A stretch of 64,000 bases of DNA from Fistulifera solaris (Eukaryota), in assembly GCA_030295235.1 (NCBI GenBank), contig AP026127.1, positions 62,001-126,000 on the forward strand, written 5' to 3'. Position numbers and translations under genes: made by a program. Of the stretch, positions 1,127 to 38,097 are shown piece after piece. The notes beneath the pieces are model-generated. The model was not told the origin of the DNA. It worked only from the letters and a program-made list of their open reading frames with translations, and made no database searches. Position 1 is the stretch's first letter. Each line of letters opens with the position of its first letter.

Positions 1127-1962
1127 CGATTAGTGACATGTCAACTAGTTCATTTCGAAGAATCTCATTGATTTTTTTCTTCATTTATCGACAATACACC
1201 GACTTGTTGATTCCACGCTCATAATCCATCATTAATCTACACACCAATAGTAGAATCCTTCGCCGAACTTCGACATGCGAATGTTTTGAGCCCGATCTCT
1301 GTAAGATCTACCGCTTTTCATCGTATTGTAGTCACCGTTCACCGACTGTGTTCCAGAAACGTCCAGACACGTTCTGATTGGGTTTACACGGTGAATTGTC
1401 GTCTACAACCGAACGCTGTCTGTTGCTGCATGATTTTCGCCGTTCATTTTGGATCGCCAACAGATTACTGTTGGTCGGCCTGGTAACCATTTCTCGTATT
1501 TGCCGGCAACTTTTTCTGTCGCCAATAACGCTTGGCGTAAAACCATGAATGCCGTAGTACAAAAATAACTAAAAATCGACGCCCGAACTATCTCTTCTTC
1601 GCTAGCATAGTTATCCCAGTTCTAGCGTGCTATAATAGAATCCACTTTTCGATTTCGTCCATTTGAACGTCCGCACTCCGCACTTAAAACACTCGTGACT
1701 TAGGATTTCTACTGTGGTTTTGAGAGTAGTCTGGTCGCGAGTTCCGAAAAATTCATGCGAATAAAAGTTTGGCGCGAAGACGCGAATGAAGCGAAAATAG
1801 GAAAATACCAGGTAAGACAAAGGGAAAGAATTACAAGTAAGCCTCATGGCTCATTGATCCAAAAATCGAAGATCGCTTTCAATCCATAGTCTCTAAACAA
1901 CTTCAGTCGTCCTTTTCCTGCTTGTCTCTTCTATTTCTTGTTCGATAGCTCTCTTGAGAAAA

Positions 1963-8336: not shown

Positions 8337-11300
8337 TTATTCGGACCCGGGTGCCTCCAATCGTGCCACCATTTCGGCCACCAATTGTCGACCTTTGGCT
8401 TCCCACTCTTTGCGATTCGTTTCGGCATAGTTCAAGTATTCATCGCTTGCAACACCAAAGACACCACATTCCTTCAACTTCTTGGCCAGGGGAATGATAT
8501 AAAAATCAAAAAGCCGATTTCCCCTTCGTACCAGACATCGGCAGGATTCTTGGACGCGGCCTTGACGATAGGCCGTCATCATTTCTTCAAACAGACGAGC
8601 ATTCCATTTGCGGTAAATGTGCCAGTGTTGCATCGTGTGCGATACATCGGAGGCTTGAATGACATGCTCCAACACAATGGTCGCCCCTCACGATTGATTT
8701 GCTCTTCGATTTCTTCGGGAAACAGGTTGACGCTGTGGTTGTTTTCGGCAAAGGCTTTGGCCCAGCGGTCTTTGCGCTTGACTGAGTGACTTGTCCATAA
8801 TATCCGTGGCCATGACCAAATTCACAATGAGTTGGCGGAAGCGATTGTATTCGGCCGGTGTGGTGTAAATGCAGTTCGCGCAGATCAATGAAAGCTTCGT
8901 CCATGAGTAATGACCAGGCGATATCGACGGAGTTTTGTTCGGCGACACTTTTGTTGTGGTAGACAGCGGCAATGGGAGACTTTTCTTCGATCAATGTGGC
9001 ATTGGTGACACCCTGGTGATCGACGTCGTGAATGAGAGCCGCAAAGGCGGGCGGCAAATTGGCGTCAATGGCTCGGAGGTAATACCGTACGTGTAATCGT
9101 GGAGAGTCCGGTCGTCTCCGGATACTTCAGGTGCCACAATACGTGAAAAGAGCTTTGTGACCGACATGGTGACGTGACTCACGTGTTCAAAGTTGTGGAA
9201 GGCATTGTTGCGATAGAGTGTAGCAATGGCGTGGACGTACTTTTCGAGTTGTTGCATAACCTTTTCTTCCAAAACGACGGGTGCGAAGCTTCTCCTGACG
9301 CGCCGCCGCTTCGGCATCAAAGGTGGGCAGGGCGAGAATTTCCGTGACTTCTCCGAAAAGCGTGACCCACTTGAGTGACCTCTTCGGAGCAATCGGACGG
9401 CTTCGAAATTGGGGGCAGTGTTCAATGCTTGACGTCGTTGGACCACGTCTTTCAATATCTTGGCAAGGACTTCGGCATTCCACTTCACCAGGCGTTGGGA
9501 TTTTTCCGTCAACGCATTGTTTTTCGATGGGGTAGCATTTTGGAAAAGAGCCGTAGCATCATCACGAATTCTACCTTCGTCATCTCCTTCGCTGGAAGAG
9601 ACACCCGATGAAGTCGACCGGGGACCGTCGTCTTTGACCAGCCAGTAGGTTGTCAATTCGCCCTTGCCTTTGGCGTTGACCTTGTCTTCTCTCAGTCTGG
9701 TCCAGTGCCCCTTGCCGAATGCCTGCAAAATGTTTGCAGTTTCTTCAGAAATGTGGATCATGTTCTTTTTTCCCGTGGTTTCGATACGAGCCGTCGTGAT
9801 TCATCGTGTCACCAAAGAGTTGGAACCGCGCCTTTTCACCACGGAGAACTCCGCCCTATTCGGAAAGGGAAGAAGGATAGTGGTTGAGATAAATGTCATG
9901 GGATGAAGGATTCCATTGGAGCTCCAACTGTATTTTGACGTACCGTCACAGGCCCGCTGTGCAAACCGACTCGCAATCCCAACTCTCCGGTATCTGGTCC
10001 TAATGTAACCTCGAGCTCATTCATCAATGACATCATACAAGCGCGACAATCGCGTGCAAAACGAGCCATGGCGACAGCATGGTCGCGACGTGGATCCGGA
10101 AGACCACACGCTGCTACGTAACAGTCACCCACCGTCTCCACTTTGAATATGCGTCTCCTCTTGGCAATACTGTCGAATTCGGAATATATGGTTTCAAGCA
10201 ACTGGAACACTTGTGCCGGTTCTCTCATCGAACTCCATGCAGTGAAGCCTGACAACAAAATGCGTTGAAAAGGTAAGGCCACGCGTCTCTGGGGCAACAG
10301 AACGTTGATTTCCAATTCGGTTGGTTACTTACCAACAAGATCTGCAAACTGTGCATTAGTAGGAAAAGAAAGGGAGTGGGCTTGTGAGTCTCCGAAAGCA
10401 CACGTGACAATCTGAGCGAAAAATCATGCCTTTGTGGACGTACCATAATTGTTGTGGATGGAAATAGATCAGCGATGGGTGGCATATTCCGTTGTACCGA
10501 CTCGTTGCGATCCCCATTGTCGGGAGTACTCAGCGTTTCCTTCAATCGGTCCTTCATGCTGATACGGAACGCTCCTTTCCCCATTCCTTTCTCGGCCATT
10601 TCCGCCTCCTGCTTGGCCTCGGCCATGATGCGTTCCTGGACGTTTTTGGGAAACAATGATTTGACTATGTCCGTTGTGCGCTTCGCGACTCGTGATATGT
10701 TTCTTTGACGTCGCTCCACGGCACAGTCGTAGCAGAAAAAGATGCCGGTTGTAAAGAGGAAGACACCCAGAATGGCCAACGCGAAGAGATAAGGATCATG
10801 CGTCATATACTTGTCCTTTAGTTCGTCAGTAGGGTAAACATCAATGGTATAGTAGCAATGCTCGACGGAAGTGTCTGCTCCATCGTACTGCGCGAACCCC
10901 GCAAAGTTCGCTTCCATATGCAGGTAGTTGTACTTCGTATCGTGCAAATTCCCCTGTCCGACGACTGTGGCATCGTGTCCGTCGACTCGATACGTTACGA
11001 TTGTGCCGCAATGATCGTTGACTTCAACGATAAATCCATGAATATCGTGCGGAAGAACATTCTTGAAATACTTTTCCCACGGCAATACGGCAAAGACGAA
11101 TCCACCCGGGTCGGTGTAGGACAGATTGTCGCTATGAAGAGTCTTTTGAACAGCTTCCAGGATAACAGACCGCGGATGCCACTCCGAAAGCTCTTGTTGT
11201 CGCGTGGCCTCGAGCAAGTATTCCACATCCACAATGCCGGACATGACGACATGCTCTACTTCGAGAACATCTTGTTCCAACTGATGAAACCAGGAGAAAG

Positions 11301-12078
11301 TGTCCATGTCCAAGAGCATGGTATCTAGGTCATTCGCTTGGGGTGCGACTTGCCATACCGGCACAAACGCAGAGTCTTGGTCATCTTTTTCGGACATGGC
11401 TTCCCCTTGAACATTGTGAATGTGTTTGGGGATCTGTCCTTGGTTGTGTTGGGGCCATTCCATTGCAGTATAAGCCTCAAAGGAGTCTCTCTGCTCCAAG
11501 AGAACCATTGGAGTGAACGCGAACAGCTCGGATCCGGTCAAACGGATGGCTTCTTGCACTTGCTGCGGGAAGAAAGGCAGAGTAACGTTGGGCCAGACCC
11601 CCGCCGTTTGCGAGGCGTGAGACGAAATCGCCGTGGCTAGACTGCGAACTTGCCCGACGGTATTGGCGGCGTTGGTTTCGGACAATTCAATGATTTCACC
11701 GGCCAAGTCACGAAACTGAATGAAAAGTAGAACCGTAGAAAGTGATGGGTTAGAATGCGTAGTGTAAGATGTCGTTCGACACGACAACAAACCTGGACTT
11801 ACCTCTGCTTCAAAGACACTTTCTTCGCTCTTTTTCACAAAGAAGAAAGCTGCCACTGATATCGCTATGCTAGCGAGAAGGAGACAAATGTAAACAATCG
11901 CCTTGGTTCGATTTACAATTCGAGTATCTTCTCGAACGAAACTGCCATTGGAAGTCGAACCATCGGAACGGGCGTTGGTTTGAGACTGCGACGGATCCGA
12001 TGTGCTTTCTCCCTCGTGTTTGGACGAAAGCGACTTGGAGGATTCCGAATGCTCCAATTGAATGATTTGCGGAGGCAT
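8337..12078 (-). CDS. Membrane class III nucleotide (probably guanylate) cyclase fused to a class I phosphodiesterase domain; multi-exon, frameshifts in the 3' half
   Basis: ATG at 12078 (MPPQII). Two hydrophobic TM segments flank a CHASE-like extracellular region. Cyclase motifs FADLVGFTAWSS, KVETVGDCYVA, VGLHSGPV, RFQLFGDTMN, KGKG. PDE motifs FHNFEH, IHDVDHQGVTN, MATDI, QASDVSH. Introns 11802..11716, 10443..10349, 10332..10249, 9943..9856. Confidence 0.9.
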
Positions 12079-12723
12079 TTTTGTGTTTTTATGAGCGAAG
12101 AAAGAATCGATTCGCTTTTGCCGAATTGTTGCGCAGATAACTTGCGACAAAGTTTGGGATGAGATTTGGAGTTGGCGGTTGGCGCTCCAGTGAGAAAATT
12201 TTCTCGTTCGTTGTGACCTTCGCGCTTCGCGACAATTCGTGGAGGCCCAAACGAGACATAATAATGAAATAATACAGAAAACAGGTCGAGTACGGTCATT
12301 TTCAAGTTGAATGATATGATCTGTACTGCAGTTCAATGTAAGCTTATTTCTCTGAGCCAAAGCCCGAGACATTCGGTGCATTATTGCAAAGCTCGCCGCT
12401 CGCCGCCCTCCGCCTTTTTCCTTTTTCCGTGCGTATTCAAATAGACCTTAAAGTACTACGTAGTACGTAGACGTCATTCTGTCTTTATTCTCGGTCTTGG
12501 CATCCGTGCTGTCATCCAGAAGTACTACGGAATCAATAAGTAGCTACTTGAATTGATTCACAGAACAATGACCGTTTTCTCCTGACGTGGTCGACTTGGG
12601 ACCTTGGGACTTGGGGCGGTTGGCGGTTGGCTTTTGGCTTGCTCTCTGCTCTCTTTGGACCTCTGTTCAATAGGCTTGTCGCTTGTCAAGTACCGATAAA
12701 AATGCAGTAGTGCGTTCTGGAGA

Positions 12724-15957: not shown

Positions 15958-16136
15958 TGGATTCAGATATTAAAAAGGATTTCCATTGGTGCTAAAATGA
16001 ATGGGAAGGCCGGGCGAACGACTACAATACACCTCTGTATAAATCGAACAGTCGGCACTAAAAAGTGGATCAATTGTAGCTGGTTAGTTTAAGAAACGTC
16101 ATACAAATATAAACAAAACCTATAACTACTATAAAA

Positions 16137-17709
16137 TCAAATGTCTTCTTCATCGTCACCAAATACTTCCGCCTCTTTCACTTGAATCAAAAGATGGACC
16201 GGATCCAATTTTGCTCCCGCCACCAAATCAAAAAACTGTTGCAGTGTGGTAATTGCCAAATCGCCCTGCGTGAAGGTATGATAGGGCGCTTTGTCAGCTG
16301 TCGAATGGCAAATGATCCATTGCACTTCCATGTCACCCTTGGCCAATTTGGCACTCGTGTCCGCATCAAACTCGTACAAGCCCGCTGTTTGGATGGGCGG
16401 TGCCATTTGCTGTTCCAATGTCAAGGACAAATCATCGAGCATCGGAGTGAAATGCAAATCGACGGATTGCTCTCCGTGAACCGAACTCGTGACCCGGACG
16501 ATGGGAGGATACGATTGCAACTTGCGTTCGTTGCTGGGAGGATAGGCTCCGGTTTGGGGTTGTTTGCCACCAAATTCGGACGCATTCCATGTGGTGGCGT
16601 GCAATCGAGTGGGCAAATCCGACAACTTCGGCCACGTAGATGGATCGTCTTCGTGCAATGTAAATACTTCATAGCACAATTTTCCCGCGTATCCATTGAT
16701 ATTGGTGGACACATGGCCGTCGGTTTGAAAGTTGGCATCCTTCCACACTTCAATCAAATGGGTAAAGTGTTCCAATGTCAACGCATGGTACAATTCACAG
16801 TCTTGTTTCAAAAAACAACGACGGACCAATTCTTCGACGCGCAAGACCGAAGCTTGGGCTCCTCCTTCCTTGAAAGTTTCTCGGAAATTGTTTTGCAGTT
16901 GCGAGAGTGTGGTGGACACGGCCGTCGCCACGGTGGGATCATCGCCCGATACCGTTTTGCGAACGGATGGCTTTTGTTTTTTGCCCCGCAATTTGTGCGC
17001 GTCCGCCGGACCGGCCGTGTGGACTCTCCACACCGTCTGTTTGTGTGTTTGGCCGTTGGTGCCTTCAATTTGTTCGTCTTGTAAAGCGATTTGATCCAAT
17101 TCAATTTCAATCGAAAAGTAAGTCCGGGCGATTCGTTTGAGAACCCCTTCGACCAACGGCACCAACAATGTTCCACGTTGCGAATAGTAATGCACCAAAA
17201 TGGCACCTTCTTCGGCACTCGAATCCGGATCGTCTTCGCTCCAAAAGACCGGTGCTACGAATCCTTTCGGATACGACGCCTGCAAATGATCGTGCAAGGA
17301 ATTCAAGTTGGACAACCAGTCGCGCAGATTGCTTCCGAGACATTCCAACACATTGGAATACCCATTGTCTTGAACATAATCAATAAAGTAGTCACCAAAC
17401 GCGTGCAAGACATCGTCGACACGGATGCCCAAGACTTCGGAGGCCGCGACGACCAATTGCACCGTATCGGCGTCGGGATAGTACTTGTATCGCAAGAATC
17501 CTCCATCCGGAACATCACAATTCGCCTTTTCTTTGATTTGATGCCACGTTTCTGGGGAGGTGAGTCAAAGAAGAAAACGGCATAATGTTGGCAAAGGAAG
17601 TTGAGCCGACCCAGCGAAGGAACCATCAAAAAGGCCACCGATATCGCTTACCTTCCCCAAACTTGCTCACCACCAGACATTCGGTGCAATCGTTGATCCA
17701 ACCAAACAT
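16137..17709 (-). CDS. H-NOX (HNOB, heme NO-binding) protein with a C-terminal extension, 490 aa, two exons
   Basis: Exon 1 (17709..17652) reads MFGWINDCTECLVVSKFGE. Intron 17651..17552 is GTAAG...CAG. Exon 2 reads ETWHQIKEKA...YPDADT...FGDYF...NLNSLHDHL (proximal His)...APVF...HYYSQR (YxSxR heme-propionate motif), matching the soluble guanylate cyclase beta-subunit H-NOX. Confidence 0.92.
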
Positions 17710-17973
17710 TGTTGAAACTGTTGGAGATGTTAATGATGGGTTGCACGGCGATGATTGACATACCTTTCGGTGCAAAACATCATCGCGCCGTTTCTTGTTC
17801 GCGTCGCTCGGTCGGAGCTACCCGAAATTCGAAATTAGCAGAATCTAGTTGGAACTTTATCTGTAATGCTGCGGCGTGTGGCGTACGAGTGACGAATACC
17901 TGGCACAGTACGGTGGTCTACTTGTATCCATCCTCAAAAATCGTTGCTTCTTCTTGCAGCATCGATAGTGCAT

Positions 17974-17994
17974 TGACGTCATGACTCATGAGTC
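17974..17994. promoter_or_regulatory. Three abutting bZIP-type motifs (TGACGTCA, TGACTCA, TGAGTC) upstream of the H-NOX gene
   Basis: Sequence tgacgtcatgactcatgagtc lies ~265 bp upstream of the ATG. Function is inferred only. Confidence 0.35.
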
Positions 17995-18586
17995 GCGGGT
18001 CATGGATCGCGGTTCGTTGCTAAGATAAACAAATAATACGAAGTTCTGCAACGACAACTCCAAACACATATGGTAGACTATAATATACAAAATTCATTGT
18101 GAGGTAATAGTGAATAGTTTTCGCTTTCGTATTTCCGACATGTGTCAAGGGTCTATGCGTCTATGCTTCTAATGCGGATGCATGATGTCGAAGAAACTTG
18201 ATACAGAACACGTTAAGTGGATAATCACTCCTTTCGACTTGCTCGGTGTGCAGTAACAAGTTTGGCAGTCAGCTAACATCCTATTACAGGGAAAGTACCA
18301 TTTACGACTTACAACACCCCGTGGAGTGCAAGCGCGACTATCGGCGACCAGGCGCCCTCCGCCAAGCCTCAAGACAAGTTACTCGTCTTGGGAAGACAAT
18401 GTAGTACCAACAAACCTATGATGCATAGAATGTCTAGCGCAAGGCAAGGAAAAATGAGTAGGACATCAAGTAATGCTTATCAGCTTATTCTGTATTGATA
18501 CTATCATCTGACAAAAAGGAGCCGCAAAATCGAAAGCAATGTCTTGTTGTTTCACTTGATACGGTAAGTAGCCACTCTAAGTATGC

Positions 18587-19590
18587 CTAATCATATGGAG
18601 GATCTCGATAGCCGCAGGAAAAAAGCTTTTCGCCGTGATTGATTGCCAATTGCGTGATGACAGCAACAGCGGCGAATGCGTCGCCATGTTTTACCAGTTC
18701 CCTCGCCATCTCCCCTGCAAGACACTTCCATTGCTTGAAACGCTTGTTGATTGTCTCTTGTCGGTTACGCACCCTTTGCTGCATGTATTCAGTGTAGGGA
18801 GGGTTTGCGAAACCCGCAGGACATTTTACAAACAAAGGATGGTCGCCGATGTAGCCATCGTCTGCCTCGACTCGCTCACCAGGTTCAAGATGGCTTCGGA
18901 GTGAATTGCGAAAAATGTTGATATCCGGCCAAAGCCCAGCTTCGTACGGACCATTTACCCAAACAATGTCGCCAGTTAAAATACATAATGCCACTTCATA
19001 CCGGAATGCCGACTTCTTGAATTTATGGCTGTAAAACGCTCGACCGTGCTCTGGAATCAGGAAGTCTGTTCCGTCAACTGATATCAAACAATCATTTCCC
19101 TTATCCATCTTGAATCGATTCTCCCAGATTATCTGATGAAGAGAGTCGAAAAAGAGACGCGTTAGATGTTATTATCCGATATGTAGGTGATGATTCTTTT
19201 ACTGCAGCAACTTACCAGGAAAGACTGAAGCGAAGAAATTGCCTCGACAAACTGCCAAGACCACTTTCGAAACGTGTCCTTGTCTACTCCGCCAGCGAGC
19301 GCGCACATGACCTTTTCCGTGCCGTATACTTTCAGGAACATAAGTGCCCACAGCAGATGCTCCTTATTGCTTGTGCTACCAGGCGGTAGGCTTTCCGTTT
19401 TTTTCAACAAATTCCACAGAGAAACACAAACACCAACACTACAACCAAACATTTCACGAAACTCGCCGTCTTCGCTCGAGAACGCTCGCTGTTTCCACGG
19501 GTCACGTCGCCAAATTTCTCTAGCAAGAATCAAGAACGCATCCGGAGAGGCCTCATCTGTTAGTTGTTGAACGTTCGCATTACCGAACAT
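18587..19590 (-). CDS. PIF/Harbinger-superfamily (DDE_Tnp_4-like) transposase, 306 aa, two exons
   Basis: Intron 19215..19133 (GTAAGT...CTAAC...CAG) joins LQSFL to IIWENRF in frame. Catalytic motifs VDGTD, YSHK, GP..AG..PD, ADDGY and R..QETINKRFK. The N-terminal part (HLLWALMFLKVY...FRKW) is HTH-like. Confidence 0.88.
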
Positions 19591-20377
19591 GATTGCTCTC
19601 AGTAATCACGTATGCGACAAGAAAAATCGTTATCTTGAAATGGAATGAAGAAGTTTATGCTCTTCATCAAAACCCGATCAATTATCAGCTCATCGCAATT
19701 GGGATCGCACAGACGAGGAGGCAAAAACAAAAAAAGATCCGAGACTCTCGTCACTCATCACAGCGTCACAGGTCACAGTCAACACCCTTTCGCATAGCAG
19801 TCGATACATAGCACAATCGTTGATGGTCCCCCATGCGTTTGAAAATTCGAAATTTCAGATTATTCTACTCAAAAATTTAGTTATGAAGGGAAAGCTTTGA
19901 TAACTTAACCTTTAGTGTTTCGATAGATAGAAGGGATACCTCTGAAAATTGAGTGTTAAGTGAACAACTATCGATCTTTTTGTAAAAAAATGAAAAATAA
20001 CCTCTCTCGCCACTCGCCACTCCTAAGCTAACGCCTTACCCACTGTATAAGTACACGACCAAGTCGACTACTTTACTCACTTACAGTACAACGTTGACCG
20101 TTGTTTGTTCTCAAAGTTCAACATGAACCAAGACCGCCGTTGCGTACTCTTCACCGCGAAAAAAGAGACTTAAAGCTGCACGTTTCGGCTTCCAGCTTCC
20201 AGCAAACCGTACAACGTATGAATTATTAGGAGATGCGAAATGAGAGAATGAGATTTTTAGTGGAACCGATATCCGATGCACAAAGAAAAGGAAGAAGGGG
20301 CATATCATTTTAAAGAAACGCTTTCCTTAAAGAATCGTACTCTCTTGCTTGTAAGTTGTAAGGAAATCCAGGTATCT

Positions 20378-20668
20378 GCGGCATGCGGCATTACGCATTA
20401 CGCATTACCGCATTACAGCCAATCGCGGCAATAATGCGTTCCTCGGCATTAATGCTTTCTGACGCATTACTGCGATGTGCGGCATTAATGCTTTCTGCGG
20501 CATTAATGCTTTCTGGGGCACATGTGCTTCCTCGTACAAAAGTCTACGCCTTTTTCCGTAGAAGACAGCATTTAGTGCTTTCTGGGGAATATGTGCTTTC
20601 TGCGGAATTAGTGCTTTCTGCGGCACTTGTGCTTTTGGCGACATTAATGCGTTCTTCGGCATAAATGC
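20378..20668. repeat. Degenerate 18-bp tandem array with a palindromic GCATTAATGC core
   Basis: Units such as gcattaatgctttctgcg repeat about 11 times with variants, preceded by gcattac x4. Confidence 0.85.
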
Positions 20669-21506
20669 TTTTTTCTTTGAAGATACAGTACTGCTCTAAA
20701 AGTTTTTCCAGTTTTAGTCTCAGTTTTATGTACAGTAGTAATTTTTATTCCGGTAAAATAGGGAGTACTGATTTCTTAAGTGACTCTCGCTACAGTAATG
20801 TGTGTAGTGTGGTTACGATTAATTAACCCCTGTGATTAATCACGGTAAATGATCAAAATTTCTTATTCATCGAAAAACGGAATGCAGTAGTGAATATGCG
20901 ACTTAGAAATCAGAAACGAGACACGGAGTTCTTCTTAGCTGATACTCGAGACTCGAGACTAATTTAACTTTAGTCTGTGCCACATACAGTTGGCGATACT
21001 CAAAAGTAGTGAAAAGCTAAACAAATTCTGAGGCTATTTTAGAGAAAGCACATTTATGGGGTTGAGTGTAGACTAAATTAGCTTGTATCTTGCATCTTGT
21101 ATCGTATTTATTGTGACTTGTGACGATGATTCGTGATTGCTAATCGCCCCTCGATAGCTAAACAGTACATATGATGCTCGTTTTACGTGCATTTTCAAGG
21201 TGGGTGTTCCGTGACCGTGGCTGTCTCCAACCCACTCTCTCTTCAACTAGTGATCAACGAAGAACATCTCGCCCATCTTGCCTCTTGCAACCGCAACATT
21301 CAAAGTAATCACACTTTTGACGCAATTGCCAAAGTTTCACTTTTCAAATCCATCACAATAGACAAAAAGGTACATGAAATGGGATCAAGCACGCAAAATG
21401 GGAAATGAAGCAGAGGAATCCGTAGAATCCTACGACAGGGCTACGAAGTCGACAATCAATGCTTTCGTAGAGTTTTCAAGCTCAGACGATCACAATTTTG
21501 CGCTGC

Positions 21507-21808
21507 ATGATGGCACGCTGGGGCAATCCTGACAACGCAAAACTTCGCGTCTTGTTTGAGCAAGGGCTTCGAAACGGTGGCGCTGATCCAGGAGACCTGA
21601 GTCAGCCTGCAATCGAACGCGTTCGGTTTCGCCATTGGAAAGATCGAGACTACCACGCTTTCGCGCAGATTTACCGGAAAAAGGCTCGCGCTTACCTTGC
21701 GAACGGAACCTTGGTGGGAGCCCGACGAGGTAATTTAAGGTTGCGCAGCTGCAATTGTGCTTCGCGTACTTCACTAACCCTTTGATGCCTTTGTTTGTAC
21801 CAAGGCGG

Positions 21809-21841
<33 letters not shown>

Positions 21842-22790
21842 TCCAGACGTTGAAGAGAACCAGCCACCGAACCCGGAACAGATTCCGCCGCCGAACCCTG
21901 AGCCTCCCCGTCCCCGCGGCCCCGAGAACGGAGACGAGGACGCTGGTGAACAAGAGGAAGAAGGAGAAGAAGAAGAGACTCCTGACGATTTTGAAGAGTT
22001 TGACGAAGAAAAAGACGAGACCGGGGCAGGTGATCTCGAACGTAGTTTTTCCGAGTTTGCCTTAGACGAGATGAAAGGTGAAGACGCAGAAGACAGCAAG
22101 CCTGCCGCCAGAGACAAGAGCAATGTTGTTACTTTGTCCGATGGCAGTAGCTACTGTCTTGTTCACCAGTTTCCCTACTTGGCGTACCACTATGTTGAAC
22201 ACTCGGAGCGTTTTGTGCTGATCGACTTTCTCGTCGCTGGACAAGATGAGCAGAACTTCCGTCCCAGAGTCTCCGCCAATGGAAAAGCGCTTGTTTTGAA
22301 CATGCATATTCCCGAGCTCTTCATCGAGGCAGATCGTGTAGATTGGGTCCGAGGTACGGGTATGAGCCATCATGCCGTGGCTGCTTTGCGTGTGCTGGGG
22401 TCGAAGATTGCCGAGCACCAACAGGATGAACAGGTTCTTCAGAGCCAGAAAGGACAGGTTGTCAAGCTTCCGTTTGAGGTAGAACGCGATCCAGTGGAGT
22501 GGAACCTTGTGCGATTGGAAGCCGGGAATCGCGACCCTGTCCACGTCTTTTGTGTGCTTCTCAAAGGTGTCCAGAAGCTTAAGAAGCGGGACAAAAAAGC
22601 AGGCTACGTTCAAGTCGTTTCTCCTCGAAGTCTGATCCCACCTTCTGGAGGATCTTCGCAGCCACCGACTGGTCAAACCCAGCAGCAACCTCCGGAACCT
22701 GAGCGGGGCCCCGGCTTATTTGGAGCCATTTCGGGCTTGCTCACACCTCGTCCTAAGAACCGAGACGAACGCGGTGTTACCTTCTCCTGA
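21507..22790 (+). CDS. Transposon accessory protein, ~402 aa: helical putative DNA-binding N-terminus, acidic linker, HSP20/alpha-crystallin-like C-terminal domain
   Basis: Intron 21730..21804 (GTAATT...CTAAC...AAG) fuses ORF 21498 (MMARWGNPD...) in frame to ORF 21795. Poly-Ala and E/D-rich linker. Beta-rich region FVLIDFLVAGQDEQNFRPRVSANGKALVL...VVKLPFEVE. Confidence 0.7.
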
Positions 22791-23793
22791 GCTTCCAGCG
22801 ATGTATCTGCATATCTATACATAATTACGTAGGAATTTCATGTTGGTGAATGCTTTAGCTTCGTACTATGTCTGTTTGTGTCTAGTGCCGAGTCATTTCA
22901 AAAGATATGATGCTTGTTGGTTGTTGGTTTATTGGCTCCTCTCATCTGATCAAGGAAAATGATTTGCGATATAATTAGGGCGCGAGTGTCGGAAATAGGC
23001 GATCTCTGTACGGGGTAGTGAGGACTAAAACGTTATCAAGTTCTTGGCTCACTTTCGCTATCTGTTTCTCTAAGCTGGTCTTTACGCATTTCTTTGCAGA
23101 GTGTCGTTATTATTGTCGTCCCCGCTGTCACTTGTCACCCATTGAAGTGCCCTGTCGTTTTTAGCGGTACCTGGGAATTTTTTGCTTCTTCCACCTAGTT
23201 CAGTGCCGTTATGACGTCAACGAAACAAAAACATAAAAGTCGGTGGAATCTCTCGGTTTTGCTGATTTCGGGTAGCTCCGTCATCCGACTTGCATTCGCT
23301 CGGACGGTCATTCTCAGAAATCATTCAGTTTCGAGAGTAATTCCAATAGTACAGAGGGTCACGGAGCAGCCGGCGGCCAATAACGCATCGGGAGACGCAA
23401 TAAAGTGGAAATGCCACATGCCACGTGCCAGTACTACTCAAAGCTTTATAAAGGTTTACCAAAAGACAGAACCAAATTATCAATAGTCATCAACTTCGTT
23501 GTAAGTGTAACTGACGAAAAGTAGAGTAGAATGTAGAATTGTGCGTTGTGCCTTGGGCCCAGGTCACGTGTCCTACTACGTAAGCACGTCCAAAATGCGT
23601 ATTAGCTACTCCGGAGTATTAGCTTTCGGCCTTCGGCATTCTTTTGCAAATCACTCTATTTTCTATTTCTCCGATCCTCCTTTGACTGTATGTAGAAGAA
23701 GTATTATGTATAAGATTGACCGGAATGCCGTGTTTTTGACTAAGAATGTACGTGCCCAAAATATAAGCCTCCTACTTTAGTGATAATGTTCAG

Positions 23794-23893
23794 GAAACGA
23801 CGTTAAAAGTTAAAAGTTAAAACCCTGCCTCGCCGTAGGCTCTACGTAGAAACTTGTACTGAGAGACTGAGAGGCAGAATATTAACGTCCTTT
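23794..23893 (-). repeat. Dispersed hairpin element, copy 2 (inverted)
   Basis: The reverse complement reads ggacgttaatattctgcctctcag(tctctcag)tacaagtttctacgtagagcctacggcgaggcagggttttaac..., near-identical to 57165..57244 apart from slippage duplications. Confidence 0.85.
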
Positions 23894-24362
23894 TTTCCTT
23901 TCCAGTACTCCGTATTTTAATTAAAAATCAAGACCGATGACCAAAACCGGTTTTTTTTTTATTTTAATAAAATATCCCAGAAAGCGTACCAGCAGCCAGC
24001 AGCTTGAAGTTTCCGAAAGGAAAGCGGCATTTCATTATGCCGAACAACGTACGCACGTACTATAAATAGTACCAGTACAACTACGAACGTTTCTCACTTG
24101 CAACTGCAACTTGCAAGGGCCATGCATGGGCCATGGGCCTTCAGAAAAGTACACCTTCAAGGTGGGACCAACGGAAGAACGGAAGTGGACAAGCGACCCT
24201 TCTGCCGGCATAAGAAGATGGACCGACGAAGTCGCTTTGTGACGCTATTTTGTTTGATTTATTGCTTGTTTGTTGTTGTGTTAGCGTTCTCTCTCGAACC
24301 AATCTAAAGTAGACTCCATCACAACAGCAAAGCACAAATCAAAGTGAAAGTAATAGCGTTAC

Positions 24363-27300
24363 ATGAAATTGTCGTCGTCGGCTCCGGAAATGAGCAGCGA
24401 TAATACCACATTGCCGCCCAATCATCCCCCGATCGTTGCGGAAGAAACGAACGGTGAACCCAATCTTCTGTTGCCGCCGGCGGCTTGTCCCTTTCCGGGG
24501 TTGCCTTTGATCCGAAACTTTGGGAAACATTCCAAGCAAAATTGGCTTCCAACGGCGTTTTCCAGCATCCTATGACTCATGACGAGGACCAGGAAAACGA
24601 AGAAAATGTTCATCTCGTATCGTTACGCGGCGAGGTCGACGATAATCTCCCCTTTCCTACCACATACTTCTGGAAAGGATCTGAAGCAACCAATTATCGA
24701 GTACAAGTCATCAACGAAATGACCAAGCGAAGCAAGGATTTGGTGTTGGATCGGTCCAAGAACGAAAGTCTGTACGAAGCCGTGTATGACAATCCTCGCG
24801 TCAAAGAAGCTCACATTCGCAAATGGGGCGCAGAAGTAGCAGAGAATGTCCGCAACGGAACGGCCGAAGTTCGCGTCAAAATCATCGTCGGCGAGGAATT
24901 GTGTTGTTGGCTCACATTGGAAGAAATGAAAACGTTGGGTACGAACGATCTCTATCAAAAATTCATCAAGAGATCGAGATCCATCGATAGAATCCGAATT
25001 GCTTTGTCGTGCGTCGCCAAAGATCATTCCCATCAGCGAACGGATGAAAGGAACGGATCATCGTCGAGCATGAGAAAAGAAAAGACTCTCTGTGTGTTTT
25101 TCAAAAGGTCCTAGTCGCCCGACGTCTCCTGCCAAGCAAAGCAGTCCCATGAAAGGTATTCAGCGAGAAAATGGAAGCAAGCCCTCGTGCCACACATTAA
25201 AAACGGTGTTGGTCGCTCACCGCAGTCCAATGGATGGTCCTCTTCTCACCAGAGAGAACGAGATCACTTGCCTGGATGACATGGTTCAGAGGGGCGATGG
25301 TGTGGACGTGGTGACTCCTTACTATTTGGAAGAATACTCATTTTCAGCGAGTGATGGATTGACACTATCTATACTTGATACAGAATCCACGACTGTTTTG
25401 GACTTGTTGTCATCGTCAACGGTTCGAGCGAAAACGACCATGGGAGTCCGTGTCATCAATCGAGCGTCCAAAAGGAGTAAGGATTTAGTTTTACAAATCA
25501 ATGACACTGACACAATCTTTGATGCGGTCTATGATCACCCAGGAGTCAAAGCAGCGCACGTCCGGAAATGGGGCAGTTCCGTGGTCCAGGCCGTTAAAAG
25601 TGGAACATCGGAGGTTCAGTTTTGTGTCTGGGACGATGATACGGATAGGCCGTGGAGGGTCTTCTCCATTGATGAACTGAAGTCGACTACGACCCGCCAA
25701 CTTTACGAGCTTGTTTCCGAATCGAGCAACCTCATTACTATCTATTTGCAATGCGTGCCTGTCGACAGTCATACTTCAACCTCTGACAACAACTCGTTTT
25801 CCGGAACATCACCGCCAGAACTCAAGATGGAGCCGCTGACAGATAAGGCTAGTGGATCCTCGGTAAGACCAGAAGCAAAAAGCTTATGTAACAGTATCGA
25901 CGAAGACAGTCCTTCGCTCCATGACAAAGAGCTGAGCAGCTTGGAACAGCAGAAGCGACAAACGTTGCAGCGACTGAAGATGATGAATGCGCCCCGTCGC
26001 CCATCCCTTCGAATCATGAAAGATGGCAGGCCGCAATTTACTATAGAGACGGAGGAAAGGTCAACGGATAATTTGGTTGTAAAGAAGCCCAGCCGTGGGA
26101 ACCACATGAAATTGGCTGCGGTGCCCCATATTCCTCGCACTCGATCATTCCCGACGACTCGGGTGGCAACGAATGATAATGCAGAATTCGTGCGCCGTAA
26201 TGGTAGCTACAGTCAAGAAACGGTTTTCACCGATCCAACCGAAACGCTTAGGAAAGAAGGCGTGTCTTATGACTCTTCAGCGGATCCCAATACGGCTGGA
26301 TGCTCTAACACTTCATGGAACTCGCCGACAAAATCTTTGATCCGCAAACGGCTGCTTGGTGCTTTAGACCGTTCAAAGGCGAATTCTCCGGCTACGGAAG
26401 TGTCATCTCAAAGTGCTGATCAGCATGTACATTTGCGAGGAGAGCAGAAGGTGTCGATCCCGTACACCGAAGGAGATGTGACACTGGACATTAAACCGAC
26501 GAAGAATGCAATCGACCAGCAGAGTGGCAACGAAGAGCCATCGCGATCGAAAAGAGAAGTGTTGACGAATCATAGTGACAAGCTGGCGTCGTCAATTGCT
26601 CTTGATCTCCCATCTACATCATTCACAACTATGCAAGACGTCGACTCGAACTCTAACAGCCGGATACATGAGCCACAGGACAAACTCAAGACCAACGATA
26701 AAATAAAACGATTTTTGGCGTTGCAGCAAGGAAAAACAGACTCAGTCTCCCCGGATGATGACGCTTCGTCCGAAGTGCATTCATTGTCCGCGTGCACTCA
26801 AAATCGCCGTGATATGCCACCATTGAAAGAAATATCGGTCATTGCGGACAGTAGAAACTCAGATATTATCCCTCTCCCTCCGGCCGGTCCTCAGGAAATC
26901 TCGCTCCCGGCGAATGTTGTCAAGGATGTCTTCCCATACCATATAATTCTTGATGCCGATTTTGGTATCATACAAGTGGGAAATAACCTCGAGGTTCTTC
27001 TCGAACAAACCGGCCTAACGGGTCTGTGTGTAAATGACATTCTGGCAGTTACGAACCCTATCCCCATGATGGACGGATGGGATTGGACCGTGCTGGAGAA
27101 GATGAAGGATAAAACCATATTTTTTGAATCCGTTCTGCCGTCACCCTCCGGCGACAAACGAAAATTGAAGGGAACAATTGTTGAGGTTTCCGCTTCACCC
27201 AAACACGTCATGTTGGTCCTCTTTCCCAATGTAAAGAACCTTGCGGAAATGGAAGACGCCAATTTATCTATGGGAGACTTGCCCCTTCACAGTTGTCAAC

Positions 27301-29457
27301 GTGAAACAGTATTGTTCGGAGAGCATAGCAAAAGTGAAGTGAATTTAACAAATCATCTTGATCAGCTCCATAGAGATTTGATTGATTCCATGGAACAACA
27401 GATAAAGGATCGTACCGAGGAATTGGCGGCAGCGTTTCGGAACCTTGAAGCGGCAAACGCGCGACTGGCGATACAATCGGCTCGTCAGCTGGAGCATTTC
27501 GCATGTAAGTCTTTTCTGATAACTTTATTGGCTGCTCGTTTCAACAATTGAACTAAGCTAACCTTTGCATGTACCTCCTCCCGACTCGTTTAGGCATGTC
27601 TCACGAAATCCGAACTCCGTTGAATTGTATTGTGGGTATGTCTTCGCTTCTGTTGGACGACGCCGATGACATGGAGCCGATGCATGCCGATTCCATCCAG
27701 ATGATCAATACCAGCGGCGAGTTGTTGAAGGCCGTTGTCGACGACGTTTTAGATTATGCAAAGCTCGAGAGTGGAAGTTTTGAGGTGGACATCAAAGAAG
27801 CGAATCTGCAGAGCACATTAAACAGCGTAGTCCATTCCATGTCCGAGAAAGTGCGAGAGAAGAACATTCGTCTTCGACTGGACTACTCTCCATTTTTACC
27901 CGAAATTGTCGAAACAGATTCCCGGCGACTGCAGCAAGTCCTCTTTAATCTACTCGGCAATGCTGGCAAATTTTCCAACCAAAACAGTGTGATTGATTTG
28001 ACTGTAAGTCTCGTTCCTGTGGAATCGACGGGAGTGGACCCCGCGGAAACGAGCAACGGTCAAGTCATTCGATTCGAAATCAAGGATTACGGAAAAGGTA
28101 TCCAAAGCAAAGACTTTCAGACCATTTTCGAGCCATTCTCGCAAGCCAGCAAGGAGACGCAAACGCTTTATGGCGGCACCGGGTTGGGCCTGAGTATAAC
28201 TTCCAAGTTGGTGCATCGATTGGGTGGAACCATAACGTTACAGTCCGAGTACGGAAAATTCGCCGAGTTCACCGTAAATTTGCCGATGCGAGGTGAAAGT
28301 GTGGACGTCGAATGTCTCTCAAAGCGAGTCGAAAACACCACCATTGTCTTGATCGAAAACCCCACGGTCCATGATTATAGCTTCACCAGTCACGCCATCA
28401 AGCCCGAACCAATTCCACTCAACGCCGAGACGGCAGCGGCCTACCATGTCAACGTCGAACGATGCACGAGTTTGGAAGAAGCCTGCCAGCGCATTCAAAA
28501 CAACAACACTCCGACCAAGACGCATCACTTTGCGTTTTTGGTCCACGAAGAGTTGTATCAAAGCGGAATTCTGGAAAGGCTGGACGGTCTGGTGGGCCAC
28601 TTGAATCACACGCTCATGACCTTTGGTCCGGATTTTAGCGTCGACTCGACAAAGGATCGCCATTTCAAATCTTTGTCCGGTATCTTTGCCTCGTCGCTTA
28701 TTAACAAAATTGCCGGTTACATAGAACAGCGAAGAAGGGAGAAACTATTGTTTGCTACGGGCTCTTCGCTCGCGCCAACAAGTGTTCGTGAGATGCCTTT
28801 AATGACGCCAGCAGCTTCTGCACATGTTTCAACCCAGAACCCTAACCCTCCGCAGCCTGGATCCTCCGTCATCATTTCCCCCAATAAGATTGTCAAACAC
28901 ATTCAACCATCAACGACGGCAACCGCCGAACGGCAGCATTTAAAAATTTTGTACGCCGGTACGTTGTTTCGTGTCTTTGCGCTTTCGACTATGAGCAGAA
29001 TCTCTCACACACTATCAGAGGACAACAAAGTGAATCAAAAAGTCCTTTCGCGCATTCTCACTCGCGCCGGAATCACGCAACTCACCATTGTCGACAACGG
29101 GAAGAAAGCAGTCGATTTGACCGAAACCGAACAATTTGACATTATCTTCATGGATATTCAGGTACGTCAACGTGAATTCACGTAAGATTCGAGGAATGCG
29201 AAATTCGTTTCTTAACTTCCTTCCTCTCTTCGTTCGTTCGCTCTTTCTTCACAATCCTCTAGATGCCCGTCATGGATGGTATGCAAGCCACCAAGATTAT
29301 TACGGAGCGCAATCCGTTCGAAAAGATTATTTTCTGTACCGCACACGCCTTGGAAGAATTCAAAGAACAAACCGAAGCCGTTGGTGCCACTCACTTCATT
29401 TCGAAACCCTTTCGATTGGATGACATTGAGCGCGTATTGCAAGAATTGGGGTATTAG
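24363..29457 (+). CDS. Hybrid histidine kinase: two copies of an unknown ~100-aa domain, HNOBA (PAS + coiled coil), HisKA, HATPase, receiver
   Basis: HNOBA motifs FPYHIILD..IIQVG, LKG, PNVKNL..DLPLH..RETVL. H-box ACMSHEIRTPLN. N box QVLFNLLGNAGKF, G1 DYGKG, F box IFEPF, G2 GGTGLGL. Receiver ILYAEDN...FMDIQMPVMDG...TA...KP. Introns 27505..27593, 28959..29018, 29162..29262. Single-base frameshifts in T-runs near 24493 and 25100. Confidence 0.88.
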
Positions 29458-30445
29458 CGGTGCCTGCAAAGTGAAGGATTCTTCACAAAAGCGCGGCTAA
29501 AAGCTAAATTCCCTCCTAACAGGCCGCATGCACCAACTTTCTGTCCTGTTTACTCCACACACACTTTTTGTCTGGATGCACAAAGAACCATTTTTCATTT
29601 CTCCCTTGTTGATAGAAATAAGAAAAAAGAATCATCATTACCACCAATTAGCGCGACATTTTTCAATCCATTTGTAAAATCAGATAGCTTCCTGTTATTG
29701 TTTTCTTTCAAAGACGTTCTCCTTTCTTGTCGAATTTGTTCACTTGCAGCATGCTCTTCACGTTTGACGACGAGTGCATCGCAACACAAGGACGTGCTCC
29801 CCTCGCGATCCTTCCGTAAGCCCGAATAATCATCCGCACCGACGCGACACTGTATCCCAGTTTCTCAAAGTCTGGATCGATAGGAAGCTGCTGTTGTGAA
29901 TTGTATGGACGTTATCAAAGTTGTTGCAAGCACACTTCTGTTGACGTTTCGATGAAATAATAACGTCGTCGTCCGCTTCTCGCGTGTTGCGTGCTTGCGT
30001 CGCGCAATAAGGATCCGGATCAATACCCACATTTAGTCCGTTGCGTGTACATAACTCACGTGATCCTTCGAGTGCCGGCTTGTATTTTACAGCCTGTAAC
30101 AGTAGCCATGAACAGTACAATTATCTTCAACGGACAAAAATGTGGGCTCTTGATAGTGTAAGCCTTACTGTACCGGTAGCCGTCGACCCTCCATAATGTC
30201 ACAACAGTATTCCGAGCCACTCATTATGCAACAGTCGGGCTGGTGGACGTCGCATAGTCCGCCCGCGACCCGCAACAACCTTTCTCTTTTCAAGAAGTAG
30301 GGCAATCATTGACAGCGGGAATGGCGTTTGTATAGCATATGCTATGATAAAGTCCAGCTACGGTTGATATGGATTTTATTACGTTTCTTGCAATTGTCAA
30401 GCTTGTGACTGCTATTGTGCAATCCAGCGCTATCCAACGCCCTTT

Positions 30446-35982: not shown

Positions 35983-38091
35983 ATGCGCCTTTCGACCATG
36001 GGGATCCCCCCCGAAACAAACCAAAACCACGACGACGGCCAAGGGCAGTGGATCCAAAACACCGGTAAAACGAAAACAGGAGCCACTGGCACAAGTGATG
36101 CTGAAGAAACCAGGTTCAAACACTCGATTTTGGCAAAGTTCTCCATCTTGGATGAAGAGGCCAACATTTACACCGATGTGCAACGATTCACCGCAGCTCT
36201 TCTCGGTCATCTACCCGGCGCAAGCATGTTATCCATGAACGAAAAACACTCTATCCACAGTATGGATCAATTCCCCACGACGCCCCCAGTCATTCTGTCG
36301 TTTTTCGACATCAAACAAGAACTCCGTGAGAATCCGACAACGCCGATCAAAGGTTATCATACCATCCGTTTCAAAGTGGAAACCCAGCGCACCTTTAGCG
36401 CCGTTAAAAGCAACACGTTCTTAGAGCACATTCAAGAACACCGCATCTTCATCAAAAGCACCAATGCCGAAACCAACAAGTACGTTAAAATGGGAGTCAT
36501 TACCATGCGCCACACCAAGATCACCAGCACTTTCGAAATCAATCGCCTAGTTCGAGACGCCATTGATACCCATTTCCAGCAGCTCAGCGACAACAATAAC
36601 GGCAATGCAACCACTGCTGACGGCTTGAACCCCAATGTTACCTCCCATGTCTTTGTGCTTCCAGAAAAACCAAACCACACGGTGCCCAGCACGAACCCGA
36701 ACGATCCTAATGCTACCGAACGCATCGAAACACATCTATTCTGCGTCTACACCAAAGCAGAATATGCAACCAAGTTGGCAACATACCTCTCCGCAGAAGG
36801 TGTCTTCGAAGACCACATTCACGGACACTTCACACCCTGGTGTGTCCGCCATTCAAAGCACTTTTCGGCCAGATTCTCCGCAAACACAATGCATTTCTTT
36901 TAAATGTTCGCACATTTGTCATTGAGGGAGTAACCAAAGAACTCATGTTCTCTCCGTCGGGACGCACCATCAATGGCGACGTCGTACCATGCGCTGCTGA
37001 ATTCGCGAACATTGTGGGCTCCACTCGACCGCCCAGCATCGAATGCATTAGAGGAGTACTATGACCGCGACGCAACCCAGCCCATCTGTTTCGCCCCCCA
37101 GAACCGACTAAACTCACCGCCACTCGTGGACGCTGGCTCATTCCGTACTTTCCCGATGAAAACAATACGGCGAAAACCCTTCTCGAAGAAATTATTGTCA
37201 CCTGGAACATAGCTGACCCGAAAGCATTCGAAGAGTTGCAACGCCCCGGAAATCATCAATAAGGAGCAGAGCCAACCAAAACCAAACCCAGCACAACACT
37301 ACATCGATATCTACAGCAGCAAGGGTACTGTCCCAGCAGAGGTTCGACTCAATCCGAGCAAGTACAACACATACAACACCACGCGATCTCCTCCAGTGGT
37401 GATCAACATTCCAACAAACCCAGTAACCACTGGCAACCGCACATGGTCACAGGTTGTTCTCGGACACTCAAACCTACGGTCGCTCCACAAAATTCGGCTC
37501 CTGCTCAAATTCTTAAACCGCCGGCCGAAGTCTTCACTGCAGGCGGCAGCTACAGCAACGACACAACAGGACGAAACCAGTCTCAACCAGACTGTCAACA
37601 CATCACGTTCTGACTTGGAAAGCATGATCAGCAAATTGACTGCCGACCAAGCCCTATACAATCAACGACAACGTGAAGTCGAACAATCCATCAATGAACT
37701 CAGAGCAAGCATGGGCGCTTCAGCGCCCACGGTTTCACAACAGCAGGTACACACGACCGAACAGCTTCAGATGATGAACTTCCTCTCCCAAGGCATGACT
37801 TCTATCATGAAAAGTCTCAACATCCTTCCCCCAGCTCAGCAGTCAGCACTATTGAGCACTGCTATAGTCCCAGTTGTTGACGAGAACCAAACTGAGGATG
37901 TTCAGATGGAAGCAGCATCGCTCAGCGGTTCCAAGCGATCCAAACCCGCCACCCCACAGCGAAACGACACTTTGCCTAGTAATGATTCATTCTACTCGGC
38001 AACTCAGCCACCGGCAACCCCTACAAGAGAGCCGGCGCAACCCACCAATCTCTTTCAAGAAGGCCCCGCATCCGAGGATAGCGGCGCTTAA
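35983..38091 (+). CDS. LINE ORF1 protein (frameshifted)
   Basis: Chain of same-strand ORFs from ATG 35983 to stop 38091, with a coiled-coil-like, low-complexity C-terminus. It sits directly before ORF2. Confidence 0.7.
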
Positions 38092-38097
38092 CAGTCA

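Follow-up and report, generated by a model that had tools for sequence, protein, structure and literature searches.

We analyzed a 64,000-nucleotide stretch of the Fistulifera solaris genome (GenBank assembly GCA_030295235.1, contig AP026127.1, positions 62,001 to 126,000 of the forward strand; hereafter the window, with position 1 as its first letter), which is eukaryotic and carries short GT..AG introns. Its main feature is a pair of divergent genes, one encoding a protein with an H-NOX domain and the other a hybrid histidine kinase with an HNOBA input region, which appear to correspond to the two separated halves of a gas sensor of the soluble guanylate cyclase (sGC) type (Table 1).

Table 1. 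Features of the H-NOX/kinase locus, in window coordinates
Feature	Position	Strand	Basis or remark
H-NOX protein gene	16137-17709	-	490 aa; splice prediction and X2 contig joint
H-NOX gene structure	exon 1 17652-17709; intron 17552-17651; exon 2 16137-17551; stop 16137-16139	-	
Acidic tail ...DDEEDI	16140-16160	-	nearly invariant end of the H-NOX family
Shared ubiquitin-like domain, H-NOX protein C-terminus	16170-16511	-	kinase-repeat profile, fold match
Conserved middle region of H-NOX protein	16515-16937	-	long helix, then ordered segment
H-NOX domain	17054-17709	-	residues ~1-185; Pfam HNOB, phmmer, fold match
YxSxR motif (YYSQR)	17175-17189	-	aligned to YYSER of human sGC beta1
Proximal His motif LHDHL	17283-17297	-	aligned to human sGC beta1
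Harbinger-type DDE transposase relic	18587-19605	-	Pfam DDE_Tnp_4 3.3e-6; outside the system
Expressed two-exon gene between the pair	21509-22790	+	X2, X3, X4 contigs; not assigned to the system
Hybrid histidine kinase gene	24363-29457	+	~1614 aa; X2 contig, gene model P0105
Kinase gene structure	ATG 24363; introns 27505-27593, 28959-29018, 29162-29262; stop 29455-29457	+	
Shared ubiquitin-like domain, kinase repeat 1	24701-25015	+	H-NOX C-terminus profile, iE 8.2e-13
Shared ubiquitin-like domain, kinase repeat 2	25446-25757	+	H-NOX C-terminus profile, iE 4.1e-25
Linker motifs KIKRFL; PPLKEI	26700-26717; 26817-26834	+	just upstream of HNOBA
HNOBA (PAS-like domain and signaling helix)	26898-27504	+	continues into HisKA helix
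HisKA and HATPase_c	27594-28291	+	Pfam 3.3e-13 and 3.9e-23
H-box SHEIRTP, His codon; N box; G boxes	27602-27604; 27947-27964; 28085-28102, 28172-28189	+	
Receiver (REC) domain	28940-29454	+	two introns inside; Response_reg 1.3e-6, 5.4e-11 on pieces

Positions 16000-29700 were compared with four public runs, X1 to X4, of unrecorded kind, among which X1 resembles genomic DNA (flat depth over all 30 bins, no joints) and X2 to X4 resemble RNA assemblies. For the H-NOX gene, a single intron was called from the ATG at 17709, with the donor GTAAGC at 17651 and an acceptor CAG ending at 17552, and the joint of an X2 contig omits exactly these 100 bases; a loose poly-T end at 16104 places the poly(A) end of the mRNA near this position. 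Exon 1 starts with MFGWINDCTECLV, which matches the N-termini of relatives, and the complete 490-residue protein has the N-terminus MFGWINDCTECLVVSKFGEE, with relatives starting alike. For the kinase gene, a 5140-nt X2 contig with poly(A) comprises 24280-27504, 27594-28957, 29018-29159, and 29261-29647, omitting the three predicted introns and placing the mRNA from 24280 or earlier to 29647. The last of these joints was found in X3 and X4 too, and the spliced form of the receiver is present in contigs of all three RNA-like runs. Both genes are transcribed and spliced as modeled, with all four introns confirmed, and the kinase is made as a single mRNA from the N-terminal region through the receiver. 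The H-NOX gene lacked contig cover in X3 and X4, and depths in these runs are no measure of coexpression.

The open reading frame (ORF) at 16137-17564(-) matched Pfam HNOB (PF07700) with 113.1 bits (E 1.6e-32; curated cut-off 25.5 bits) and matched neither HNOBA (PF07701; cut-off 23.4 bits) nor any cyclase domain, HNOB being the sole match of the Pfam scan. Against the H-NOX domain of human sGC beta1, phmmer gave 4.5e-28 with LHDHL and YYSxR in register, and no variation is seen among the 46 aligned members of the family at the heme-ligating proximal His, the propionate-binding YxSxR triad (numbered H105/Y135/S137/R139), or one Pro. A structural model of the domain, built without the first 20 residues encoded by exon 1, returned human sGC beta1 (8HBF chain B) in Foldseek at 1.3e-12 with 35% identity, compared with 28-30% for Nostoc and 14-20% for other bacterial H-NOX proteins, and it superimposed on Nostoc H-NOX 6MX5 in VIA with Z 17.9 and a root-mean-square deviation of 2.4 over 166 residues. 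These alignments assign the H-NOX domain to the sGC beta1 type. O2-binding H-NOX proteins have a Tyr at the position corresponding to beta1 I145, which decides O2 binding; the window residue that phmmer aligns there is Leu and the domain is therefore predicted to be NO-selective.

Beyond this domain, the H-NOX protein has ~300 further residues, beginning with a basic linker that is disordered and continuing with the conserved middle region, a C-terminal domain, and an acidic tail. The middle region was modeled mostly at pLDDT 82-94 and has many invariant or near-invariant columns across 46 sequences, with no Pfam match and no usable Atlas match. Among the 104 matches of a family search, 94 carried HNOB alone, five carried HNOB fused to HNOBA and a cyclase, five were fragments, and none had a kinase domain. 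Among longer proteins, of 824-2350 aa, no relative of the H-NOX protein was found at E<=0.001, which is weak evidence.

The plus-strand gene is, by its sequence motifs, a hybrid sensor histidine kinase, with all defining elements present. Its HNOBA region matched PF07701 with 81.9 bits (E 5.9e-23) and lies right before the output domain, where the junction to HisKA reads QLEHFAC followed by MSHEIRTPLN, with junction peptides that match the Nitzschia orthologue P0147. The N- and G-box motifs are NLLGNA, DYGKGI, and GGTGLG, and the acceptor Asp (codon 29153-29155) sits in FMDIQ of the spliced receiver sequence FMDIQMPVMDG. HNOB was absent even at E<=1 from gene model P0105 and from P0147, and Pfam detected Guanylate_cyc in neither the H-NOX nor the kinase gene. 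Searching with the HNOBA piece retrieved 41 proteins, between 555 and 1926 aa long; HisKA occurs in 33 of them, all four domains in 20, and HNOB or a cyclase domain in none. Conservation across 35 aligned kinases is highest in the HNOBA region, which has many invariant columns. The linker upstream is variable except for KIKRFL and PPLKEI, which are near-invariant in the same kinases (alignment positions R883, F884, and L885; P937, P938, E941, and I942) and could be docking motifs. A DSKIDRFL-type motif also occurs twice in P0182, a cyclase that lacks H-NOX.

An initial annotation of the locus, made from the letters alone, had recognized both genes, and much of it stands: the intron-bearing H-NOX gene with its proximal His and YxSxR motif and without HNOBA or cyclase, the intron-bearing HNOBA-HisKA-HATPase_c-REC kinase without H-NOX, and the placement of HNOBA at 26900-27400. 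The domains that it reported were all recovered, but its list was incomplete, having missed the middle region of the H-NOX protein and a ubiquitin-like (Ubl) domain shared by the two proteins. It had also described a head-to-head pair; the orientation is indeed divergent, but the genes are not direct neighbors, being separated by 6.65 kb that contain a transposon relic and an expressed gene.

The shared Ubl, an unannotated domain of putative docking type, is the most original element of the locus. Sequence comparisons identify the last ~105 residues of H-NOX family proteins as homologous to repeats near the N-terminus of the kinases. BLASTP aligned the Nitzschia H-NOX protein P0049 with window repeat 2 over 103 ungapped residues (8e-16), and the two window repeats with each other (3e-25). 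A hidden Markov model (HMM) of the H-NOX C-terminus matched only three ORFs in the window, namely the H-NOX copy and the two kinase repeats, and 32 of the 41 kinases, with one to three significant copies each; its score of 1.7e-30 against the window H-NOX copy is circular, a 100%-identical model being in the training set. In the other direction, an HMM of 49 kinase repeats, from which the models of the window species were left out, matched 99 of the 104 proteins of the H-NOX-family search, and the five misses are exactly the fused cyclases. Alignment of the two family alignments with hhalign gave a probability of 99.6 (E 7.3e-24) over 108 columns.

No Pfam family matched the shared domain at E<=0.01. 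AlphaFold2 modeled repeat 2 at pLDDT 91.9 with a beta-grasp topology, and its structural neighbors (VIA Z 5.5-6.7, best 6.7 for 4TQ0; Foldseek E 0.05-0.4) were all beta-grasp domains: Raf-RBD, SHANK SPN, Atg5 (UblA), UBX, the Ubl of USP proteins, the Ubl of tubulin cofactors B and E, and PB1. Searches with the H-NOX copy (residues 347-461 of a separate full model) returned the same Ubl neighbors at Z 5.2-7.0. These scores are modest, and as the Z values lie below 8, the domain is placed in a fold class only and not in a family; the topology of its model resembles that of beta-grasp interaction domains (PB1, Ras-binding/RA, UBX, the Ubl of tubulin cofactors B/E, and Atg5 UblA), but it matches none of them by Pfam sequence comparison. 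Averaged over 88 H-NOX copies, the net charge is -10.5, whereas the average over 49 kinase repeats is +1.4; at several aligned columns, basic residues give way to acidic ones. PB1 domains pair as acidic and basic forms, types I and II, and the acidic and basic versions of the shared domain recall this pairing. Kinases carry between 2 and 10 copies.

The two genes are also linked in other diatoms. In Nitzschia inconspicua, one copy of the pair has consecutive accessions (KAG7366376 and KAG7366375), and the members of the second, on a single contig, are separated by 8-9 accessions; in a Bacillariaceae metagenome-assembled genome, the two are tagged SGBAC_001383 and SGBAC_001384; in Cylindrotheca fusiformis, they are genes.26 and.24 of scaffold4829, with one gene between; and one pair in ENA is on contigs of equal size, 14191. 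This linkage spans at least three genera, in which the H-NOX proteins are only ~50% identical. Among 19 metagenome loci, 13 of them under 2.1 kb, locus L019 is a fused H-NOX-HNOBA-cyclase gene, and no kinase was seen at L011 (2.6 kb) or at five longer H-NOX loci (L006, L014-L017), where the upstream flanks of 0.001-5.4 kb are shorter than the 6.65-kb gap of the window.

Named relatives of the window genes are all from diatoms, and all from Bacillariaceae except for the centric diatom Dactyliosolen. Beyond its own family, each half is most closely related to diatom proteins in which H-NOX, HNOBA, and a guanylate cyclase are fused (P0096, P0097, and P0099-P0101, with P0099 labeled Dactyliosolen fragilissimus), to which the H-NOX domain is 54-58% and the HNOBA region 37-44% identical (the latter with E 1e-35 to 2e-42). 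When the HNOBA piece was searched against PDB with phmmer, only sGC beta1 and alpha1 were matched (2.8e-11 to 1.5e-5), and the structure of Nostoc STHK gave no match at E<=0.01. Because the nearest relatives are fused diatom cyclases and PDB matches are to sGC only, we read the pair as putatively derived from an sGC-like eukaryotic gene that was split in this lineage, rather than from an imported bacterial operon. A bacterial origin by gene transfer, which we also considered, is less likely on the same two grounds.

The components of the pair resemble those of animal sGC (alpha1/beta1; PDB 6JT0, 8HBE, and 6PAS), with an H-NOX of the beta1 type and an HNOBA PAS/signaling helix that, among solved structures, is closest to beta1/alpha1. 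Animal sGC, however, carries these parts on one chain with a class III cyclase, whereas the window encodes two polypeptides, with a hybrid kinase as the output and an extra Ubl in both. The window genes are not an sGC, which is a single chain of H-NOX, HNOBA, coiled coil, and cyclase. The fused diatom cyclases, in turn, are single-chain proteins without the Ubl (0 of 5 with the kinase-repeat HMM).

A second likeness is to bacteria. HNOBA-bearing kinases next to H-NOX genes are known from cyanobacteria (Nostoc), and the window pair has a common logic with such systems, in which an H-NOX protein accompanies an HNOBA (H-NOXA) kinase (Alr2278 of Nostoc sp. PCC 7120; STHK H-NOXA of Nostoc punctiforme, Ma et al. 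2008). The bacterial systems are operons of small proteins, whereas the window genes are eukaryotic, intron-bearing, divergent, and transcribed into separate mRNAs; the adjacency and cotranscription that mark the bacterial two-gene system are thus missing from the window, and linkage is conserved nonetheless. Bacterial H-NOX and HNOBA-kinase proteins are not known to carry the Ubl. Ma et al. 2008 and NpHNOXA are cited in PMC2828450. In the NO-responsive HnoX-HnoK (HqsK, HahK) phosphorelays of Shewanella and Vibrio, a kinase is likewise controlled in trans by a separate H-NOX protein, which in its NO-bound state inhibits autophosphorylation. HNOBA is absent from those kinases, and the H-NOX proteins of these systems are only 14-20% identical to that of the window in structure-based alignment. 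Control of histidine kinases by free H-NOX proteins is established in bacteria (PMC10411614; PMC3759921; PMC6759604).

The initial annotation had proposed that the genes encode two halves of an sGC-type sensor, had named linkage in other diatoms as a check, and had known of no description of the arrangement. The proposal is supported, as far as homology and gene context go, by the fused diatom cyclases as nearest relatives, the PDB matches to sGC, the recurrent linkage, and the shared domain; linkage is seen in Nitzschia, Cylindrotheca, the Bacillariaceae metagenome-assembled genome, and the one ENA pair. The last point must be narrowed: a literature search found no published account of H-NOX or HNOBA in diatoms, nor of a eukaryotic sGC-derived split version, but the split into H-NOX and HNOBA-kinase is itself known in bacteria. 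We rate the eukaryotic version of this bacterial-type split as what is new at the locus. Transcripts described as sGC-like (sGC-beta-like) have been reported from Pseudo-nitzschia, with cyclic GMP (cGMP) assumed as the output in those reports (bioRxiv 10.1101/286138; PMC5485032), and a further Pseudo-nitzschia paper reports nitric oxide synthase (NOS) genes with no mention of guanylate, cGMP, a sensor, or NO-binding. The published sGC-like genes bear the names 'GUCY1B' and 'soluble guanylate cyclase 88E'.

Taken together, our analysis suggests that the two genes probably encode a gas-sensing two-component input built from eukaryotic sGC-like parts. Specifically, the H-NOX protein would bind ferrous heme via the proximal His and the YxSxR triad, would sense NO, given the distal-pocket Leu at the site of the Tyr of O2-binders, and would join the dimeric hybrid kinase in trans. 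The kinase would keep the HNOBA PAS/signaling-helix relay of sGC, with the HisKA/HATPase_c/REC output replacing the cyclase. Ligand binding would then alter the rate or extent to which the kinase phosphorylates its H-box His and passes the phosphoryl group to the Asp of its own receiver, from which the signal would pass to an Hpt protein and a response regulator. Docking would probably be aided by the Ubl, with one strongly acidic copy on the H-NOX protein facing two near-neutral or basic copies on the kinase. We modeled such a complex in ESMFold2 with the adjacent-gene pair of Nitzschia (P0146/P0147) as a stand-in for the window pair, supplying two copies of the P0147 HNOBA (962-1161) and Ubl repeat 1 (73-180) with the full H-NOX partner P0146; this run, made without supplied alignments or controls, gave ipSAE values of 0.14 and 0.10, for which the mark is 0.34, and weighs neither for nor against the complex.

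Several observations weigh against this proposal. First, the kinship of the window's own H-NOX copy with the kinase repeats is faint: the kinase-repeat HMM matched it at only 8.6e-5, BLASTP of the window H-NOX C-terminus against the kinase repeats returned nothing, and this copy has diverged such that its relation to the repeats is visible only via profiles and orthologues. Second, the start codons at 17709 and 24363 lie 6.65 kb apart in divergent orientation, and there can be no common promoter because the gap holds an unrelated expressed gene. Third, no kinase lies near H-NOX in metagenome contig L015 (5.4 kb upstream, 10 kb downstream) or within 3.1 kb upstream in contig L016. Fourth, the shared domain is not restricted to these two proteins, since CAP-Gly proteins, an IQ-motif protein, and many others that lack any Pfam domain carry it too, and it may be a general localization module. 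Finally, the kinase frame is broken twice in the window at homopolymer runs, where a T is missing after 24491 and an extra base stands at 25080, such that the N-terminus is spread over three frames (ATG 24363, ORF 24458-25114, and ORF 25074 onward). The missing T is present in X1 and X2, the extra base is absent from X1, X2, and X3, and the reading frame is uninterrupted in models P0105 (99.9% identical) and P0106 (96% in the HNOBA region), of which P0105 ends within the first kinase intron and therefore lacks the kinase core. This suggests that the breaks are assembly homopolymer errors or strain differences. Over 13.7 kb, the window and X1 differ by nine single-base indels, two of which are those that break the kinase frame, and the others lie at 17627, 18699, 18712, 19398, 19870, 23951, and 29623.

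When 1.84 billion representative proteins were searched with a profile of the shared domain, 106 matched at E<=1e-3, and the 91 new ones were scanned with Pfam. Four are full HNOBA kinases (P0151, with 10 copies, P0160, P0164, and P0190), two carry HNOBA only (P0155 and P0204), and one (P0182) has the shared domain at its head (119-229), followed by HNOBA and Guanylate_cyc, with no H-NOX. Four contain CAP-Gly (P0172, P0175, P0183, and P0210), one contains IQ motifs (P0199), and 77 have no Pfam domain; a bacterial repeat protein (P0234) is probably spurious. The remaining protein, P0221, is NOS-like, with the shared domain at 50-153 (E 1.9e-7) and a NO_synthase oxygenase domain at 960-1187, but it is a single representative on a 4.5-kb contig, for which a chimeric assembly is possible. 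Named carriers are all Bacillariaceae. CAP-Gly domains bind acidic C-terminal tails, and a link between the CAP-Gly carriers and the DDEEDI tail of the H-NOX family is conceivable.

One explanation for this distribution is that the Ubl takes both proteins to a common place or scaffold, such as the cytoskeleton, without mutual binding, leaving any coupling to the contact between H-NOX and HNOBA, if there is coupling at all. The CAP-Gly, IQ-motif, and Pfam-less carriers, the tubulin cofactor B and E Ubl domains among the fold matches, and the presence of up to 10 copies in one kinase would all fit such a role. The charge contrast between the H-NOX copies and the kinase repeats, however, suits heterotypic pairing more than a common ligand, and the shared domain stands in place of H-NOX at the head of HNOBA proteins. 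We regard a common scaffold as a tentative possibility that falls short of probable.

Alternatively, the sensor might answer another ligand or state, namely O2, CO, or heme redox or thiol oxidation, rather than NO. The H-NOX family binds NO, O2, or CO (PMC10411614), a heme-free redox-sensing mode has been reported for Vibrio cholerae H-NOX (PMC7108781), and C70 and C292 are invariant, and C11 nearly so, in the 46-sequence alignment of the family. We find this unlikely, given that the window H-NOX is closest to the NO-selective sGC beta1 and has Leu, not Tyr, at the I145-equivalent position.

Two further alternatives fare less well. The H-NOX protein could be a shared, diffusible sensor whose main partner is another protein with Ubl and HNOBA, of the P0182 type, the kinase being one client or a minor one. 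Such a role would suit the domain order of P0182, the spread of the shared domain over 106 representative clusters, and the reading of Pseudo-nitzschia sGC-like transcripts as cGMP signaling in two reports (bioRxiv 10.1101/286138; PMC5485032), but we judge it quite improbable, as the recurrent linkage is with the kinase and not with a cyclase, and the P0182-type cyclase amounts to one representative cluster with three members, against 33 of 41 proteins with HisKA for the kinase type. That the two genes are functionally unrelated, their linkage and shared domain being remnants of the domain shuffling that founded them, is very unlikely: the 6.65-kb separation with a gene and a transposon inside it, and the two metagenome contigs without a nearby kinase, would agree with it, but linkage has been kept over at least three genera at ~50% H-NOX identity, an HNOBA input without any H-NOX would have no known stimulus, and the functional residues are invariant in both families.

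Retaining a two-component input assembled in trans as the preferred reading, we also put forward a more speculative extension, which we ourselves hold to be doubtful. The ~105-residue Ubl may serve as a docking module, specific to Bacillariaceae, on which an entire NO signaling complex is built, uniting the NO source, the receptor, and the outputs by acidic-basic Ubl pairing. As such, it would tag the H-NOX sensor (acidic copy), the HNOBA kinases (2-10 near-neutral or basic copies), the HNOBA-cyclase, the cytoskeleton-linked CAP-Gly proteins, and at least one NOS-like protein.

Other features of the window are not assigned to this system. Between the two genes, the transposase relic has no cover in the spliced runs, and the expressed gene has a 75-nt GT..AG intron (21730-21804), a poly-Ala/Gln tract and an acidic stretch, and no Pfam match. 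Upstream of the kinase, a ~40-base element at 23825-23865, where many short X1 contigs end loosely and the summed depth jumps to 315, probably represents a dispersed repeat. Downstream of H-NOX, the next gene on the same strand, at 8340-12447 (-), resembles a receptor-type bifunctional guanylate cyclase/phosphodiesterase, with two hydrophobic segments flanking a large N-terminal loop, Guanylate_cyc in two exons (2.1e-22 and 6.5e-7), and then PDEase_I (6.1e-12 and 2.8e-5); HNOBA and the shared domain are absent from it. Guanylate cyclase/phosphodiesterase genes of other pennate diatoms respond to pheromones (PMC5485032). Further, the window holds a second Harbinger-type DDE_Tnp_4 ORF at 56304-56921 (-), three DUF285-repeat ORFs at 2-2697 (+) and 44861-45595 (-) (6.1e-128, 9.6e-61, and 1.2e-65), ankyrin-repeat ORFs at 48603-53950, and a DUF1415 ORF at 46224-46940. 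Over 8 kb, from 36000 to 44000, there is a strong strand bias, with a GC skew of about -0.2 and an AT skew up to +0.28, and the long plus-strand ORFs there matched no Pfam family.

In diatoms, NO is an accepted signal of stress and between cells, reportedly described by Vardi et al. in 2006 and 2008, and it is presented as such in bioRxiv 10.1101/286138. The locus offers a concrete, expressed candidate NO receptor for these organisms, with a predicted output, a hybrid histidine kinase, that differs from the published assumption of cGMP. It would represent the sGC of a eukaryote taken apart and rewired, in parallel with the H-NOX/kinase logic of bacteria, and joined by an unannotated Ubl that may link the sensor, its effectors, and possibly an NO synthase. 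If the Ubl does assemble such an NO signaling complex, a eukaryotic NO receptor would signal by His-Asp phosphorelay, replacing cGMP or acting beside it.

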